In this document: one piece after another, positions 51,469 through 63,915 of the stretch
Layout: each line of letters opens with the position of its first letter
Position numbering within the stretch: position 1 is the first letter of the stretch
Assembly (NCBI GenBank): GCA_902768335.1
Contig: CACXKR010000012.1
Coordinates: 4,870 to 68,869, forward strand
From: an uncultured Erysipelotrichaceae bacterium
GTDB lineage: Bacteria > Bacillota_I > Bacilli_A > RFN20 > CAG-826
Direction: 5' to 3'
Length of the DNA stretch: 64,000 bases
Made by a program: the position numbers and the translations under genes
Notes under the pieces: model-generated
Seen by the model: the letters and a program-made list of their open reading frames with translations, nothing else
Database searches by the model: none
What the model was told of the DNA's origin: nothing

Positions 51469-51574
51469 TCTAATGAACTTAGTCCTTGATACAATTCGTA
51501 TTGAGGATTTTTTTGTATCAAAATTATTGATTGATGATACAATAAATGATACAATAAATTTGCGAGGTAAAAAT

Positions 51575-52909
51575 ATGGAAAATCGTGAATCAGAAACAGT
51601 TGAATTTAAAAAAAGTACATCAGAATTGAAACAAGGAATTGTATCTCTATCTTCCATGCTCAATAAGTCAGGTAGTGGAATTTTATATTTTGGAGTGTTG
51701 AACGATTCGACAGTAGTGGGTCAACAAATAGGAAAAGACACAACACACGATATTTCTGTTGAAATTAAAAACCATATTAAACCAGAAGTTATTCCAACAG
51801 TAGAATTAATAAATATTAACGATAAATACATTATAAAAGTATCAGTTGCTGGTATAAAAAAACCTTATTCTGCTTATGGAAGGTATTATATTAGAAGCGA
51901 TGATGAAGATTTGCTGATGAGTAATGAAATACTTGAGCAGTTTTTCAAAGACGATTCTATTGATTATTCAAAATGGGAAAACGCAATTACTGAATGGACA
52001 ATTGATGATATTGATGAAGAGAGATTGATTAGGTATTTTAACGAAGCTAACGAATGCGGAAGATTGAATTATGTTTATAAAGACAGCATTGATGCTTTAA
52101 CGAAATTAGGTCTTTTTAAGAACAATCATTTAAATAACGCAGGATACTACCTTTTTTCAAAAAATAAGCCACTCAAATTGAAATTAGCTGTTTTTAATAC
52201 TGATGAAAGATTATCTTTTTCTGACATCAAACTATTTGAAGGCAATATATTTGATTGCATCGAAGAAGGAATTCGTTACATTTCTGAAAGAATGAGGTGG
52301 AATGCTAAGATTGTTGGAAGCAAGAGAGTAGAATCTCCAGAGATACCACTAGAAGCAATTAGAGAAATTGTTGTTAATAGTTTCGCTCATATGAAGGTAA
52401 ATCCAGCTATTTTAAACGAAATCTATTTAACTCCTACCAAAATAAAAATCAGTAATCCAGGCAATATTGCTAAGAACATTGATCCAATGGATTTTGCAAT
52501 AGGAAAACAAAGTCCGATATTAAGGAACCCACTGATTGATATGACTTTATATAAAAATAATACTATTGACTCTTTTGCTACTGGCTTTGAAAGAACTTTC
52601 AAACTCTGCAAGGAAGCAGGGATAAAATGGGAATATGAAAATACTAAAACATCCTTCAGTTTTACTTTTATTAGATCAAATGATACAACAAATGATACAA
52701 CAAATGATACAATAAAAAATCGCCAAAGCGATATTATTAGTCTAATTAAAAAAGCTCCTTCAATAACAAGAAAAGAGATAGCGCAGACATTAAATATTTC
52801 AGAGCCAACGGTTGCAAGAGACTTAAAACTACTACAAGAAATTGGCATCATCAAAAGAAATGGTTCAAACAAAACAGGCTATTGGGAGATACTAGAAAAT
52901 GGCAAATAA
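51575..52909 (+). CDS. AlbA_2 (Schlafen-like) / HATPase_c_4 ATP-binding protein with C-terminal winged HTH
   Basis: The N-terminal ESETVEFKKS motif is diagnostic of the AlbA_2 divergent-AAA domain. A central RecG-C-terminal-like ATPase-like region follows. C-terminal HTH ITRKEIAQTLNISEPTVARDLKLL. SD gaggt precedes ATG 51575. Confidence 0.65.
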   Translation: MENRESETVEFKKSTSELKQGIVSLSSMLNKSGSGILYFGVLNDSTVVGQQIGKDTTHDISVEIKNHIKPEVIPTVELININDKYIIKVSVAGIKKPYSAYGRYYIRSDDEDLLMSNEILEQFFKDDSIDYSKWENAITEWTIDDIDEERLIRYFNEANECGRLNYVYKDSIDALTKLGLFKNNHLNNAGYYLFSKNKPLKLKLAVFNTDERLSFSDIKLFEGNIFDCIEEGIRYISERMRWNAKIVGSKRVESPEIPLEAIREIVVNSFAHMKVNPAILNEIYLTPTKIKISNPGNIAKNIDPMDFAIGKQSPILRNPLIDMTLYKNNTIDSFATGFERTFKLCKEAGIKWEYENTKTSFSFTFIRSNDTTNDTTNDTIKNRQSDIISLIKKAPSITRKEIAQTLNISEPTVARDLKLLQEIGIIKRNGSNKTGYWEILENGK

Positions 52910-53584: not shown

Positions 53585-53660
53585 GGGTGTTTAGCTCAGC
53601 TGGGAGAGCATCTGTTTGACGTACAGAAGGTCACAGGTTCGAGCCCTGTAGCACCCACCA
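53585..53660 (+). tRNA. tRNA-Val (anticodon GAC), CCA encoded
   Basis: Acceptor GGGTGTT/AGCACCC, anticodon arm TCTGT-TTGACGT-ACAGA, T arm ACAGG-TTCGAGC-CCTGT. Confidence 0.9.
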
Positions 53661-53672
53661 TTTACTAAGAAT

Positions 53673-53700
53673 TCCAATGTCGTAAGATGTTGGATTTTTT
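53673..53700 (+). terminator. Repeated terminator module, copy 1 (after tRNA-Val)
   Basis: TCCAATGTCgtaaGATGTTGGA hairpin (two G-U pairs, so specific to the + strand) followed by TTTTTT. The same 22-mer recurs at 55362 and 58580. Confidence 0.75.
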
Positions 53701-53736
53701 ATTGCGTTTAGATTAGCACTCTTACACAGTAAGTGC

Positions 53737-53763
53737 TTGACTCTCTCTCTCTCTCTTTAGAAT
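53737..53763 (+). promoter_or_regulatory. Promoter cassette 1: TTGACT-(CT)n-TAGAAT, 15-nt spacer
   Basis: -35 TTGACT at 53737-53742 and -10 TAGAAT at 53758-53763. The spacer is CTCTCTCTCTCTCT plus T (15 nt). SD aggag and ATG 53803 lie downstream. Confidence 0.7.
53741..53756 (+). repeat. (CT)8 dinucleotide microsatellite inside the promoter spacer
   Basis: Direct count of 16 nt of perfect CT repeat, including the CT that ends TTGACT. Confidence 0.95.
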
Positions 53764-53802
53764 TAAAGATATCTCTAAATGCAACTCAATCAGGAGAATC
53801 TT

Positions 53803-55311
53803 ATGAAAACACGTAAATCAATTTTTGTCGTTTCTTGTTTTATGCCTTTTTTGCTTGGCGCATGTGGTGAAGCCGGAACTACGTCTTCAGGAATCGCAAG
53901 CAATCCATATGCTGATCGAGCCGTTGATGTTAAATTAATTGCCGATAGCGATTTAACCGCGGACAAAAATTTCGCCATCATCTATGGTGGTAAGATTGAA
54001 AAATTAGAAGCTGCGACTAGAAATTATTCAACTTTTAAAGGTTGGTATACCAAGAAAGCCGATATCGAATATCTTGTTCATGATGGAAGCAAGTTCACCG
54101 CCGGATTCGATACCATTTCTAATGATAAATATTCAATCAATCAGTCCGAATCCAAAGAATTATCGGTCGAAATATATGCTAAATATGACACCGAAAACAT
54201 TTCAGTCCGTTTGATTGCGAATTCTGATATTTCCGAAGATAAAACCATTGAAGTACCTTATTACTCTAATATGCCTACTCCTTCAGCAGTTGAAAAATCT
54301 CATAACGTTTATGTCGGTTGGCATACCGAATATAACGATGCTAAAGTGGTGGTCTATAAAAATAATTCATTCATCAAAGGAATGGAAAAATTATCCTTGG
54401 ATAATTATGAGATTAATCTAAATAAAGAAACTACCTTATATGCTGATTTTGAATTAGAGAAGATTGATGTTACTTGTCATCTTCCTAATGGAACCTCAAG
54501 CGTTGTTAAAGTTCCTTATCAATCTAAAGTTGAAAGATTTGCTTCTTCTTTAAGAGTGAATGGCTTTGCGGTCTCCAAATGGTCAACTGTTGAAAACGAT
54601 ACCTCATTAGAACACATTTTCACCGATGATGTTACAGCGCCTATAACCTTATATGCTGCTGAATACGATAAATATTATGTCGAATTCGTCGCCGATGAAG
54701 ATGTTCAATTCTTTTTTGCTTTACCAGGAAGCGAAATCAATGTTCCAGAAGTTCCACATATTTCAGGTTATCGTTCATCTGGCTACAAAGATAAAAACGG
54801 AAATCTCGTTTCTGGTAAATTAGTTGTTAATGCATGCGCTACATATGTAGCAACTTATGAAATCGCTACTTTTTCATGCACTAAATATGGTCAACTACAG
54901 AACACCGAGATTTATACTCCTAAAGCCTATAACAACACTTCCAATTATCGTCATTGGTCAGATACCATTAACTTTGGCACTACCTATTCGATAAAAGCTC
55001 TTAAATCTATTGGATATACTAAATTCAATTTAAGAATCCATTTATTCATCCATTCCATCAATGATGGATATCAAGACATCTTCGTTTATTCGCCAAATAG
55101 AGAACTTTACCATCAACAATATTCATATGGTGAAGATGCATATGGCGAGGTTAGTTTCAATTATTCTTTGAATTTTGCTGATTTAGATAACAATTCATTC
55201 TTTGAAATTAAATATGCCGCAAGTGGATGGTTTAATACTTTATTCTATTCAAATGGTAATCATTGGGTTTTATCCACGAATATAGAAGTGCAAATGACTC
55301 CTGCTAAATAA
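53803..55311 (+). CDS. Surface lipoprotein with Listeria-Bacteroides (Flg_new-type) repeats
   Basis: Lipobox FLLGAC. Repeated modules carrying the F/Y-x-GW-x-T signature (TFKGWYTKKAD, VYVGWHTEYND, AVSKWSTVEND). ATG 53803 has SD aggag. Confidence 0.75.
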   Translation: MKTRKSIFVVSCFMPFLLGACGEAGTTSSGIASNPYADRAVDVKLIADSDLTADKNFAIIYGGKIEKLEAATRNYSTFKGWYTKKADIEYLVHDGSKFTAGFDTISNDKYSINQSESKELSVEIYAKYDTENISVRLIANSDISEDKTIEVPYYSNMPTPSAVEKSHNVYVGWHTEYNDAKVVVYKNNSFIKGMEKLSLDNYEINLNKETTLYADFELEKIDVTCHLPNGTSSVVKVPYQSKVERFASSLRVNGFAVSKWSTVENDTSLEHIFTDDVTAPITLYAAEYDKYYVEFVADEDVQFFFALPGSEINVPEVPHISGYRSSGYKDKNGNLVSGKLVVNACATYVATYEIATFSCTKYGQLQNTEIYTPKAYNNTSNYRHWSDTINFGTTYSIKALKSIGYTKFNLRIHLFIHSINDGYQDIFVYSPNRELYHQQYSYGEDAYGEVSFNYSLNFADLDNNSFFEIKYAASGWFNTLFYSNGNHWVLSTNIEVQMTPAK

Positions 55312-55361
55312 TCTAATTTAAATAAGAGTGCTGGTCTTTGAACCAACCATTTGATAAGAAT

Positions 55362-55389
55362 TCCAATGTCGTAAGATGTTGGATTTTTT
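55362..55389 (+). terminator. Repeated terminator module, copy 2 (after the lipoprotein gene)
   Basis: Identical TCCAATGTCGTAAGATGTTGGA hairpin followed by TTTTTT. Confidence 0.75.
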
Positions 55390-55424
55390 ATTACTAAAAA
55401 TTGGCACTTTCACATAGTGAGTGC

Positions 55425-55453
55425 TTGACTCTCTCTCTCTCTCTCTTTAGAAT
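55425..55453 (+). promoter_or_regulatory. Promoter cassette 2: TTGACT-(CT)n-TAGAAT, 17-nt spacer
   Basis: -35 TTGACT at 55425-55430 and -10 TAGAAT at 55448-55453. The spacer is (CT)8 plus T (17 nt). ATG 55466 lies 12 nt after the -10, with no SD. Confidence 0.7.
55429..55446 (+). repeat. (CT)9 dinucleotide microsatellite inside the promoter spacer
   Basis: Direct count of 18 nt of perfect CT repeat, including the CT that ends TTGACT. Confidence 0.95.
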
Positions 55454-55465
55454 AAAAACAGTTAT

Positions 55466-56257
55466 ATGTTATTTACAAAAGGTATTGGAATTGCAAGTGT
55501 AGCAGTTAAAGCCGGAAAAGCCATCATTGCTGTAAAAAATGCTGGTGATAGCGGAAAGCTAGATTTTTTGGTTCCGAAATTTAGAGAATTAAGTAGCGAG
55601 ATTTTAAGTGATGAATATGATGACTCGCCAGAACTAATCACCGCTATTAAAAAAGCTAATAGTGCTATTAAAAAATCCAACAATAGTGAAGAGGATGCTG
55701 AAAAGGCTAAACAAGCGATTGAAGAAGCCTTATCTCTAATCGAAAAACAAAAAACCGAGTTAGATGAAAAAGATCAACAGCTTATAGAAGAAAGAAAGAA
55801 AAGAGAAGAAATCGAAGCAAACCTCAAAAAAATTGAAGAAGAACGTGTTCTTCAAGCTAAAAAGAAATCTCCAGAAAAAGTTAAAAAGGGAAGAATGATT
55901 GGGTTTGGAATCGCTTCGCTCATTTGCTTTTTTGTAGGAATTTATGCATTTATTCCTCATCAAACGACGGATTCGAGTGGAGCAACCGTGACGGAGACAA
56001 GTCCGATTGTTGGAATCACCTTATTAATCGGTGGTGGAATATTTCTAATATTATTCATTCTTTTTGCTTTAGAAAAAGTTGTTGTTAAATCTCTACAAGG
56101 GCATAAAGCTGTCGCTGTTAGTGGATTAACCAAGAATAGAGTTGTTGTAGATGGCGATTTAGTTTACGAGGGTAAAGAAGCTCTTGTTTATCTCGAACTT
56201 TCTGATGGCATAAAGTTCTCTGTGTCTTTTGAAGGCAAAGATGTAAAAATTCTTTAA
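55466..56257 (+). CDS. Membrane protein with coiled-coil region and two TM helices, unknown function
   Basis: 263 aa. Charged heptad-like segment (KQKTELDEKDQQLIEERKKREEIEANLKKIEEE), then two hydrophobic helices and a beta-rich C-terminus. Confidence 0.6.
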   Translation: MLFTKGIGIASVAVKAGKAIIAVKNAGDSGKLDFLVPKFRELSSEILSDEYDDSPELITAIKKANSAIKKSNNSEEDAEKAKQAIEEALSLIEKQKTELDEKDQQLIEERKKREEIEANLKKIEEERVLQAKKKSPEKVKKGRMIGFGIASLICFFVGIYAFIPHQTTDSSGATVTETSPIVGITLLIGGGIFLILFILFALEKVVVKSLQGHKAVAVSGLTKNRVVVDGDLVYEGKEALVYLELSDGIKFSVSFEGKDVKIL

Positions 56258-56359
56258 TAATAATTAATCAATTAATTAATATTTTGTTTTGTACAGTGTT
56301 CATATTTTTTTCGACAATTTTTTAAAAAACCTCAGTAATTAGTATGTGGAGGCATCTTT

Positions 56360-57993: not shown

Positions 57994-58260
57994 ATGACTA
58001 TCTTACCATCGACAAGTTTAAGAAACCAATATAACGAAATATCAGAAAAATGTAAGAAAAGTGGAGAACCAATTTACCTTACTAAAAATGGTGAAGGTGA
58101 TTTGGTGGTAATGTCTGTAGAAGCCTATGAAAAACAACTAGCTCTTTTAAAATTAAAAGAAAGACTTCTTGATATTGAATTAGAGCAACGAAGTGGAGCG
58201 AAAAGTTATAGTCTTGATGAACTAGATTCCGCTTTAAGAAAAATTGTAAATAATGGATAA
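57994..58260 (+). CDS. Phd/YefM family antitoxin
   Basis: 88 aa. The N-terminal pattern LRNQYNEISEKCKKSGEPIYLTKNGEGDLVVMSVEAYE is typical of Phd/YefM. Confidence 0.8.
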   Translation: MTILPSTSLRNQYNEISEKCKKSGEPIYLTKNGEGDLVVMSVEAYEKQLALLKLKERLLDIELEQRSGAKSYSLDELDSALRKIVNNG

Positions 58261-58564
58261 ATACAAAATCGTTATAACCCAAAGAGCATTTTCGGACCTT
58301 TTAGAGTGCGTGCTTTTTGTTAATGCAGTTTCTAATGAGGCCGCTAAAAAGCTTCATTTAGAAATAATGGAATCGATCCGTTCTTTAGAAACATTCCCAG
58401 AAGCACATCCATTTATCGATGGGCTAACTATCGCTAATATCAAGATTAGGAGAATGTTAGTGCATAATGGTAGATACTTCATTCTTTATAAGATCGAAAA
58501 AGATATCGTAACAATCTATGATATTTTAGATTCAAGAAAGGATAATTCTATTCTTAAACTTTAG
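58253..58564 (+). CDS. RelE/ParE family toxin
   Basis: 103 aa, 8-nt overlap with the antitoxin gene. The YFILYKIEKDIVTIYDILDSR C-terminus is typical of the RelE/ParE fold. Confidence 0.75.
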   Translation: MDKYKIVITQRAFSDLLECVLFVNAVSNEAAKKLHLEIMESIRSLETFPEAHPFIDGLTIANIKIRRMLVHNGRYFILYKIEKDIVTIYDILDSRKDNSILKL

Positions 58565-58579
58565 TTTAAATGCAAAAAA

Positions 58580-58606
58580 TCCAATGTCGTAAGATGTTGG
58601 ATTTTT
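58580..58606 (+). terminator. Repeated terminator module, copy 3 (after relE/parE)
   Basis: TCCAATGTCGTAAGATGTTGGA followed by TTTTT. Confidence 0.75.
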
Positions 58607-58670
58607 ATTTGCCTATTTTTAGTTGAAACCTGGAACGAGTTATAATGTAAATAACAAAGGAGTCTTATTT

Positions 58671-61398: not shown

Positions 61399-62703
61399 TT
61401 ATTTATTCACGCCATGGGGAATTTTTCGCCATTTAACATCACGAACTAACATCGCTGATAAATCAAGTGGGATTTGTGTAACGACAAATAATGGGAAAAA
61501 TACGAAACCTAAAATAAGAGGCAATTTTGGTTGATTTTTAAATTTGTCTCTCGAGCCAATGAGCACCATAAGGGCCATAAGATAAATGCTAAGAAAAGTA
61601 AATACTATTGTTCTAGCCATTAAAAATAAAGCGCCGACATTTAAATTTAAAAATAAATTTTCAAACCAATTTAAATCATAATTCCAAGATAAGAATGTTT
61701 CTTGTAACGAAATCCCAAATAGTGGTGATAAGCAAAGTAAAGCGTATTGAAGAACAAAGGAAAAGAACATCGTAAGAGGAAGGAAGGAGTGGAAGACTAG
61801 ATTGACAAATAATGACATCTTGTTTTTCTTTTCTTTGCTAAACAAAGCTTTTAGTAATTTAGGGAAAAATGTTTTACAACCAAGATATTGACCTTTCGCC
61901 CATCTAAGACGTTGAAACCACATTGTCTTCACATCGTGTGGTTGCTCATCATAAAAGATTGCTTCATCGCAATAGTGAATCGTATTACCTGCTAAAATCG
62001 TATTGCCGCTATATTCAATATCCTCGGTAATTCCTAAATAATTCCAGCCATTTTCGACCATTCTTGTCGGTAAAAGAAAACCGCATCCAGTAATACGGCT
62101 AGAGACGTTAAAGTTTTCTCGACCAGCATAACCTAAGGTGCAAGATGTCGCAAAATAATAACAATACATCGCAGGCATAGCACCATCTTTAACATTTAAG
62201 GTATGACGGAAACTAGTGATCGTTTCCTTTTTGCCTAGATAAACAAAAGCATCGTTTAATTTGTCAAAGAATTTTTTATCGACAATGTTGTCAGCGTTTA
62301 AGACAACAAAGCCATCATATTTTTTAATATCTATATGTTTAAAAGCATAGTGATATGCACTTCCAAGAGTTCTAGCATTTGGATTATTGTATTCGATAAC
62401 ATGAGCGCCTAAGGACCTCGCGACTTCAGCAGTCTTATCCGAACAATTGTGCGCAATGATAATAATATCTAATTTGTCTTGAGGATAATCTGCAGATCTA
62501 ATTGAACCAATCAAACGTGGGATAACATTTTCTTCGTCTTTTGCAGAGATTAAAACACCATAACGACATTTTTCATCGCTATGAGGGAATCTTTTTTTGT
62601 GTATAACCCCCACGATTGCAAAGAAAGCAAATTGGAAGGTATATAGACTTAGTAAGGTACCAAAGATGAGGAAGATGAGATTTACAATAGCTACGTAATT
62701 CAT
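61399..62703 (-). CDS. Membrane-integrated family 2 glycosyltransferase (processive, IcaA/cellulose-synthase-like)
   Basis: N-terminal TM segment and a GT-A fold with a DxD-like NADN motif. Q(R)LRWAKG motif as in processive GT2 enzymes. C-terminal TM bundle. Start is either ATG 62703 or ATG 62763. Confidence 0.8.
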   Translation of the reverse strand: MNYVAIVNLIFLIFGTLLSLYTFQFAFFAIVGVIHKKRFPHSDEKCRYGVLISAKDEENVIPRLIGSIRSADYPQDKLDIIIIAHNCSDKTAEVARSLGAHVIEYNNPNARTLGSAYHYAFKHIDIKKYDGFVVLNADNIVDKKFFDKLNDAFVYLGKKETITSFRHTLNVKDGAMPAMYCYYFATSCTLGYAGRENFNVSSRITGCGFLLPTRMVENGWNYLGITEDIEYSGNTILAGNTIHYCDEAIFYDEQPHDVKTMWFQRLRWAKGQYLGCKTFFPKLLKALFSKEKKNKMSLFVNLVFHSFLPLTMFFSFVLQYALLCLSPLFGISLQETFLSWNYDLNWFENLFLNLNVGALFLMARTIVFTFLSIYLMALMVLIGSRDKFKNQPKLPLILGFVFFPLFVVTQIPLDLSAMLVRDVKWRKIPHGVNK

Positions 62704-63799: not shown

Positions 63800-63828
63800 T
63801 TGTCAAAAGGGTAACCTCTTGATAGATA
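63800..63828 (+). promoter_or_regulatory. Promoter reading into the 44-nt tandem repeats
   Basis: TTGTCA (63800-63805), 17-nt spacer, extended -10 TGaTAGATA (63820-63828). Confidence 0.5.
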
Positions 63829-63911
63829 TGGTCTGAGGGTAAGACCTTAAAAAGAAATCCCAAACGAAGATATGGTCTGAGGGTAAGACCTTAAAAAGAA
63901 ATCCCAAATGA
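63824..63911 (+). ncRNA. 2 x 44-nt perfect-phase tandem repeat; candidate type III antitoxin RNA (ToxI/CptI-like)
   Basis: Units 63824-63867 and 63868-63911 differ at one base (C63865 versus T63909). Each contains the hairpin GGTCtgagggtaaGACC and an A-rich tail. Confidence 0.45.
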
Positions 63912-63915
63912 AATT

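Follow-up and report, generated by a model that had tools for sequence, protein, structure and literature searches.

The stretch analysed here, a window of 64,000 nucleotides (nt) on contig CACXKR010000012.1 of an uncultured Erysipelotrichaceae bacterium, contains two promoter-like cassettes in which a perfect (CT)n microsatellite lies between a -35-like and a -10-like hexamer. The locus opens with a tRNA-Val(GAC) gene (53585-53660, plus strand), recovered by both ARAGORN and Rfam, which is followed by the first cassette and a lipoprotein gene, and then by the second cassette and a gene for a predicted membrane protein. Both cassettes and both genes are oriented on the plus strand.

In the first cassette, the -35-like hexamer TTGACT (53737-53742), identical to TTGACA at five of six positions, runs into a (CT)8 tract (53741-53756) that is followed by the -10-like hexamer TAGAAT (53758-53763), giving a spacer of 15 nt. 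The second cassette has the same layout, with TTGACT at 55425-55430, a (CT)9 tract at 55429-55446 and TAGAAT at 55448-55453, and its spacer measures 17 nt. The tracts were delimited with Tandem Repeats Finder and the hexamers were predicted from the sequence; those of the second copy were also returned by an independent consensus promoter scan as TTGACT-17-TAGAAT, with 10 of 12 matching positions. The coordinates, tract lengths and spacers of the two TTGACT-(CT)n-TAGAAT cassettes are all as given in the original prediction, and its claim that the repeat occupies the gap between the two hexamers is confirmed at both loci. The proposed paralogy of the promoters is likewise borne out by a direct repeat of about 110 bp, of which the cassettes form the 3' ends (53653-53763 and 55342-55453). 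Within the 64 kb, the two tracts are the sole dinucleotide runs of at least five units (Tandem Repeats Finder and a regular-expression scan), and the pattern TTGACT(CT)5.5 is found twice compared to 0.01 matches expected from dinucleotide-preserving shuffles.

The first cassette leads, via a 33-nt leader and an AGGAG at 53792-53796, to the ATG of the lipoprotein gene at 53803 (53803-55311). Its product of 502 amino acids (aa) has FLLGAC as its lipobox and matches the Pfam model of the Listeria-Bacteroides repeat (PF09479) with 32.2 bits, the cut-off being 27. The second cassette precedes the membrane-protein gene (55466-56257), which encodes 263 aa with a long helical N-terminal half and, in addition, two hydrophobic helices that are predicted to be transmembrane. 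The products encoded behind both promoters are therefore of the envelope or surface type, a lipobox lipoprotein and a protein with two predicted transmembrane helices, and the identities originally proposed for them, a lipoprotein with Listeria-Bacteroides repeats and a coiled-coil membrane protein, were both recovered. The membrane protein belongs to a cluster of 21 variants at ≥90% identity. Searches against Pfam, PADLOC and PHROGs gave only sub-threshold, coiled-coil-driven matches for it (SieB at E = 0.004, LmuB and PtuA), and its single-sequence AlphaFold model was poor, with a predicted local distance difference test (pLDDT) score of 65 and a predicted template modelling (pTM) score of 0.36. 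The start codon of this gene is located 12 nt past the -10 hexamer and is not preceded by a Shine-Dalgarno sequence (55453-55468), an arrangement that is conserved in all lineages. A messenger RNA starting from this promoter would be nearly leaderless.

Further copies of the locus were recovered through exact-protein look-ups as contigs (L numbers) assembled from numerous samples in ENA and Logan. These public assemblies provided about 40 tract observations, all of them consensus sequences and drawn from different samples, in which the tract ranges from n = 4 to n = 10 and the spacer from 11 to 23 nt. Contig L001 aligns with the window over 12,792 bp with zero mismatches and one 2-nt gap, which corresponds to one CT unit in copy 2. 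Contigs L003 and L004 likewise differ from the window by a gap of one CT unit in copy 2 and carry no substitutions, while L002 and L018 are 100% identical to it. Among the remaining contigs, L031 shows no substitutions relative to L023 and an 8-nt gap at the tract, and both L050 and L053 show no substitutions relative to L049 and a 2-nt gap each at the tract. L032 and L033 have zero mismatches over 3.2 kb and differ by one CT unit and by one T in a poly-T run. In total, seven substitution-free contig pairs (0.95-12.8 kb) differ at the tract, and in six of these the tract is the sole difference. As contigs without substitutions differ by whole CT units, the tract is hypermutable and changes far more readily than any other site of the locus. 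The type B haplotype described below carries n = 4, 8 and 10 among its consensus sequences from different samples, and these shorter and longer alleles imply both gain and loss of units, so that the tract appears to change in both directions. Invariance of the tract across strains or metagenomes, which the original prediction had listed as grounds for its own rejection, is contradicted by the range of n = 4 to 10 and by the variation on identical backgrounds. At the genetic level, the original interpretation of a hypermutable repeat located in a promoter spacer is supported.

At the lipoprotein promoter (copy 1), the six window-strain assemblies have (CT)8, while L046 and L047, in which the lipoprotein gene is 97.7% identical to that of the window, have n = 9 and thereby a 17-nt spacer. 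At the membrane-protein promoter several allele types are found. Type A, that of the window strain (copy 2), is split evenly, with three assemblies carrying (CT)9 and another three carrying (CT)10. Type B, with the form TTGA(CT)nCACTCTAGAAT, has n = 8 seven times and n = 10 and n = 4 once each, corresponding to spacers of 19, 23 and 11 nt, respectively. Type C, with the form TTGA(CT)nAGAAT, has n = 8 seven times and n = 9 once (spacers of 13 and 15 nt). The form of type C is shared by type E, in which n = 9 and n = 10 each occur three times (15 and 17 nt), by L044 and L054 (n = 9; 15 nt) and by L046 (n = 7; 11 nt). The membrane-protein variants of the other lineages have 95-96.5% nucleotide identity, and a perfect tract of at least seven units has been retained across these lineages even though their coding sequences are 3.5-5% different; the exception is the single n = 4 contig, L031.

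Two homopolymeric runs near the cassettes also differ between assemblies. An A6 run within the membrane-protein gene (window 55670-55675) is A7 in L046 (4220-5015), where the reading frame is broken into fragments of 73, 76 and 121 aa. It is this frameshifted gene that has the (CT)7 tract and the 11-nt spacer, and the lipoprotein promoter of the same strain is in the 17-nt state. The poly-T run that distinguishes L032 from L033 is located upstream of the yhcG nuclease gene (window 56305-56311; column 1040 of L032/L033) and has seven T residues in the window and in L032, and eight in L033. This run may represent another mutable tract within a promoter region.

The spacing preference of the host was assessed with a scan for hexamer pairs having at least five of six matches in each hexamer and spacers of 12-22 nt. 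On the main coding strand, the number of strong -35/-10 pairs peaks at 17 nt, with nine pairs compared to zero to six for every other spacing, and the 17-nt-spaced pairs include sites directly upstream of tRNA-Thr, tRNA-Leu and several genes. This peak indicates that the organism uses canonical -35/-10 promoters with 17-nt spacing. Furthermore, the spacer length is odd in all allele types and the neighbours of 17 nt are 15 and 19 nt, which means that the 17-nt state can be reached by slippage and favours a sharp ON/OFF response.

Based on these data, a switch of the following kind can be proposed. The microsatellite would form the spacer of a sigma-70-type promoter, with TTGACT and TAGAAT as the presumed working hexamers. 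Slipped-strand mispairing during replication would add or remove whole CT units and shift the distance between the -35 and -10 hexamers in steps of 2 bp (11, 13, 15, 17, 19 and so on). Exactly one repeat number would then yield the optimal spacing of 17 nt, and the adjacent states would be expected to be transcribed poorly. Transcription would thus depend on the spacer length and be ON near 17 nt, and frequent switching within a clone would result in heritable, reversible and stochastic ON/OFF expression. In the lineage of the window, the whole module of terminator, inverted repeat and promoter would have been duplicated in front of the lipoprotein gene, giving two independently switching genes. 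If the 17-nt rule holds, the window would have captured the lipoprotein gene in the OFF state and the membrane-protein gene in the ON state.

The promoter is only the last part of the repeated module, which is composed, in the 5' to 3' direction, of the 3' end of tRNA-Val or a look-alike, a terminator, an inverted repeat and the CT promoter. The original prediction had included neither the terminator nor the inverted repeat. A terminator scan identified an intrinsic terminator in both copies (53673-53700 and 55362-55389, plus strand), consisting of the hairpin TCCAATGTCGTAAGATGTTGGA followed by T6 in the first copy and of the same hairpin in the second, where an identical 31-mer spans 55359-55389. 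The inverted repeat overlaps the -35 box and resembles the CIRCE element (an inverted repeat by which the expression of chaperones is controlled). It reads TTAGCACTC-N9-AAGTGCTTG in copy 1 (53713-53739, strand not assigned) and TTGGCACTT-N9-GAGTGCTTG in copy 2 (55401-55427, strand not assigned). Compared to the consensus of the HrcA operator, TTAGCACTC-N9-GAGTGCTAA, copy 1 as well as lineages B and C deviate at three positions, and copy 2 and lineage E at four; a scan with the CIRCE consensus at up to three mismatches gave one match against zero expected by chance. All lineages with the CT promoter have retained the inverted repeat. One of its position pairs co-varies between the paralogues, being T-A in one and C-G in the other. 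As a DNA hairpin, the element folds weakly (-4.3 to -5.2 kcal/mol; z of -1.4 to -2.3); a structural hairpin role was put aside for this reason, and the element is more probably a protein-binding dyad. Its assignment to CIRCE is not supported. In Mycoplasma gallisepticum, CIRCE elements are found upstream of promoters and were called at no more than two mismatches (PMC4245973), a limit that both copies exceed. The genes downstream are also not the chaperone or protease genes of the CIRCE gene-context criterion (groESL, dnaK, clpB, lon), and no hrcA, chaperone or other heat-shock genes were found within the 64-kb window. An Rfam search of the module returned tRNAs only and no known RNA element.

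In our assessment, a spacer-length ON/OFF switch operated by CT slippage is the best explanation of the locus, with a probability of roughly 0.6. Several observations weigh against it. A 17-nt spacer is present in only 8 of about 40 observed alleles, and type C is dominated by 13-nt, the lipoprotein promoter by 15-nt and type B by 19-nt spacers, so that either the genes are usually OFF or the spacing matters less than assumed. For contingency loci, an OFF state in most sampled populations is common. In addition, the -35 hexamer is composed partly of the inverted repeat (TTG) and partly of the first CT unit, and its conservation is not independent evidence. The length differences lie between assemblies of different samples, not within one clone, and the observations may not all be independent, as some ENA and Logan contigs may share sequencing runs. 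The scarcity of 17-nt alleles would fit equally well with a tract that is hypermutable but neutral, with transcription being independent of the TTGACT-TAGAAT distance and relying on the -10 box alone or on a promoter elsewhere. Many Mollicute promoters depend mainly on the -10 box (compare PMC4245973), and the membrane-protein gene is intact in lineages with a dominant 13- or 19-nt spacer. We nevertheless regard neutrality as unlikely in view of the absence of other microsatellites from the 64 kb, the location of both tracts exactly between the hexamers, the persistence of the perfect run of at least seven units across the diverged lineages (L031 excepted) and the use of 17-nt-spaced promoters by this genome. 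The exact placement of the tracts also bears on the idea of a structural effect of the polypyrimidine/polypurine tract, for example by way of H-DNA or of a supercoiling-sensitive helical flexibility, in place of an effect of hexamer spacing. Triplexes can arise from (CT)n.(GA)n mirror repeats, and the CT unit differs from the TA of the known dinucleotide switches; however, the tracts are short (16-20 bp) and their position is more simply explained by spacing, which makes a structural mode of action highly implausible.

An origin of the length differences from assembly or sequencing errors in a low-complexity tract is equally hard to believe, even though dinucleotide repeats are prone to stutter in the polymerase chain reaction and Logan contigs often start or stop at the module or within the tract. 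Such contig breaks are explained by the 31-mers common to both paralogous copies, and, at 14-20 nt, the tracts do not reach the length of the assembly k-mers. Moreover, the differences always comprise whole CT units between otherwise identical flanks, and identical alleles were obtained repeatedly from different samples and with independent assemblers, namely in ENA MEGAHIT-style contigs, in ENA scaffolds and in Logan. A different weighting of the module would place the main control with a repressor, HrcA or another dyad-binding protein, acting on the inverted repeat, with the CT tract tuning the distance between the operator and the -10 box instead of serving as a plain spacing switch for RNA polymerase. 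The match of TTAGCACTC-N9-AAGTGCTTG to the CIRCE consensus where none is expected argues in this direction, as do the presence of the inverted repeat in every CT-promoter lineage, its absence from the ordinary lipoprotein promoter of L040, the position of the M. gallisepticum elements upstream of promoters (PMC4245973) and the combination of an operator with a repeat tract at Neisseria meningitidis nadA (PMC2791445). Against the three to four mismatches where two is the usual limit (PMC4245973), the non-chaperone genes downstream and the lack of an hrcA gene within the window, however, repressor-dominated control appears improbable. It is also compatible with the spacer switch, which we retain as the preferred explanation.

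The principle of such a spacer switch is already known, for example from the hifA/hifB promoter of Haemophilus influenzae, in which a (TA)n repeat occupies the -35/-10 spacer and one unit of 2 bp switches transcription (PMC3899988). The present cassettes share with hifA/hifB a dinucleotide repeat that fills the spacer and changes it in 2-bp steps. However, the unit is CT instead of TA, the promoter is unidirectional whereas the hif promoter is shared and divergent, and the host is an uncultured low-GC PolC-type bacterium, in which the system is known from sequence alone, instead of a proteobacterial pathogen. Expression of the surface lipoprotein Vmm of Mycoplasma mycoides is turned ON and OFF by dinucleotide indels in a repetitive promoter, and in the mycoides cluster poly-TA tracts with differing repeat numbers precede several paralogous lipoprotein genes (PMC2628566, PMC3053259). 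Here again the unit is CT and not TA; furthermore, only two copies were seen, one of the targets is a membrane protein that is not a lipoprotein, and the module also includes an upstream terminator and an inverted repeat. At porA and opc of N. meningitidis and vlp of Mycoplasma hyorhinis, the length of a homopolymer in the promoter spacer sets the transcription level (PMC3899988). These homopolymers give 1-bp steps and graded levels, in contrast to the 2-bp steps of the CT tract, of which one state reaches 17 nt. CT repeats themselves undergo slipped-strand mispairing in Helicobacter pylori (sabA, oipA and others; PMC2715451), but are located there in the 5' coding region and cause frameshifts, unlike the promoter-spacer position found here. 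At nadA, finally, the number of (TAAA)n units alters the geometry between the NadR operators and the promoter (PMC2791445). The nadA tract is positioned upstream of the -35 box instead of in the spacer, and the operator role of the inverted repeat in the present module is hypothetical.

Full-text searches on phase variation with dinucleotide or CT promoter repeats brought up no (CT)n promoter-spacer switch among the papers listed. What is new is the CT unit, the host and the linkage to a terminator and a putative operator. Scans of 185,579 species genomes and of JGI metagenomes with the pattern TTGACTCTCTCTCTN{0,20}TTAGAAT gave unrelated chance matches only, but this pattern misses the (CT)nAGAAT and CACTCTAGAAT alleles; because it requires TTAGAAT, the scans of these collections cannot show that the cassette is absent elsewhere. 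A scan of viral contigs for AGTGCTTGACTCTCTCTCT gave no matches. In an unrelated GC-rich organism (JGI Ga0197142), the diverged contigs L006 (855-882) and L012 (655-680) contain TTGACT(CT)nGGACTTTAGAAT and are one CT unit apart, with spacers of 16 and 14 nt, respectively. This may be another CT-containing promoter spacer.

The distribution of the two genes among strains gives an indication of how the duplicated arrangement arose. A strain may have both genes or either one alone. Lineage B (L023, L024) has tRNA-Val, the terminator, the CT promoter and the membrane-protein gene, and no lipoprotein gene. In L040-L043, on the other hand, the membrane-protein gene is absent; the lipoprotein gene (95.7% nucleotide identity) follows tRNA-Val behind an ordinary AT-rich promoter that lacks both the CT tract and the inverted repeat, and is itself followed by an intact 40-nt 3' half of tRNA-Val and a terminator. 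Distant orthologues of the lipoprotein (67% and 52% identity) likewise have ordinary promoters. In L055-L057 (positions 1-121), the CT promoter and leader are followed by a remnant open reading frame of 19 aa, MKRYKLLAISLFVLSEKSL, which overlaps the ATG of the lipoprotein gene, whereas the window has a clean promoter-lipoprotein fusion at ATGAAAA. The remnant resembles a signal peptide. Taken together, the presence of the CT promoter without the lipoprotein gene in lineage B, the ordinary lipoprotein promoters elsewhere and the remnant in L055-L057 indicate that the promoter is native to the membrane-protein gene, and apparently also to one or more further genes for secreted proteins, and that it reached the lipoprotein gene by recombination. 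This secondary acquisition of the lipoprotein copy was not part of the original prediction.

Direct repeats of about 80 nt, comprising the 3' half of tRNA-Val and the terminator, are present on both sides of the lipoprotein gene in L040 (2880-2990 and 4606-4700). Their counterparts in the window are located at 53620-53703, at 55325-55392 as a decayed copy and at 58577-58607 as a terminator-only copy. In the decayed copy, alignment identifies a remnant of the tRNA-Val 3' end, GAGTGCTGGTCTTTGAACCAACCA (55325-55349, plus strand), at the place where L040 has the intact 3' half. The terminator-only copy, on the plus strand, has two mismatches in the hairpin, lacks a CT promoter and marks the far edge of the variable island. 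This layout marks the tRNA-Val 3' end as a hot spot for cassette insertion bounded by the direct repeats; no integrase-family match was obtained among the gene products scanned between 53.8 and 59.4 kb. The module has so far been found in front of the membrane-protein gene, the lipoprotein gene and the 19-aa remnant of L055-L057, which raises the more ambitious possibility that the unit of about 110 bp, with its terminator, CIRCE-like operator and (CT)n promoter, is a self-contained, portable module that has been copied by recombination before different envelope genes in a tRNA-linked island and provides insulation and dual control. This extended interpretation is doubtful at present. If true, the module would combine stochastic phase variation with a stress-responsive repressor while being shielded from upstream transcription. 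Further copies may be scattered in the genome of this rumen bacterium.

The genes around the cassettes encode an AlbA_2/HTH protein, a YhcG PDDEXK nuclease (PADLOC candidate PDC-S02), a nucleotidyltransferase (PDC-S09) and a Phd/ParE pair at 57994-58564, the toxin-antitoxin identity of which is taken from precomputed Pfam labels only (PhdYeFM, ParE). Judged by its gene content, this neighbourhood looks like a defence island. The AlbA_2/HTH gene carries 12-nt tandem repeats, ATGATACAAYAA, coding for NDT(I/T), at both of its ends (51534-51559 and 52677-52716), and its product has 478 aa in the window and 431 aa in other strains. Elsewhere in the window, two tandem copies of a 44-nt unit, 97% identical, directly follow tRNA-Gly (63824-63912), and a related partial copy is located near 61701.

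The window has a GC content of about 35% and the standard genetic code, and contains a PolC-type polymerase and Rnf genes (both checked with Pfam) as well as an rpsB-tsf-pyrH-frr-like gene order that was inferred from the sizes of the open reading frames. The polymerase, the Rnf genes, the standard code and the gene order indicate a low-GC PolC-type member of the Bacillota. The assembly labels STEW19, TONG22 and LIUQ22 suggest ruminant gut metagenomes as the source; the STEW19 label is consistent with a compendium of rumen genomes (PMC6785717).

To our knowledge, repeat-driven phase variation has been documented almost entirely in cultured, host-adapted pathogens. Most of the switches known from gut commensals are invertible promoters. 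The present locus shows that sequence alone is sufficient to recognise the textbook anatomy of a promoter-spacer switch in an uncultured bacterium, and that its key genetic prediction, length polymorphism on identical backgrounds, can be confirmed directly from public assemblies. Variation of promoter microsatellites can thus be validated from metagenome assemblies alone. Given the defence-island-like setting, switching may be connected with pressure from phages or from the host, and the locus offers a concrete target for read-level and metatranscriptome studies of bet-hedging in the rumen.

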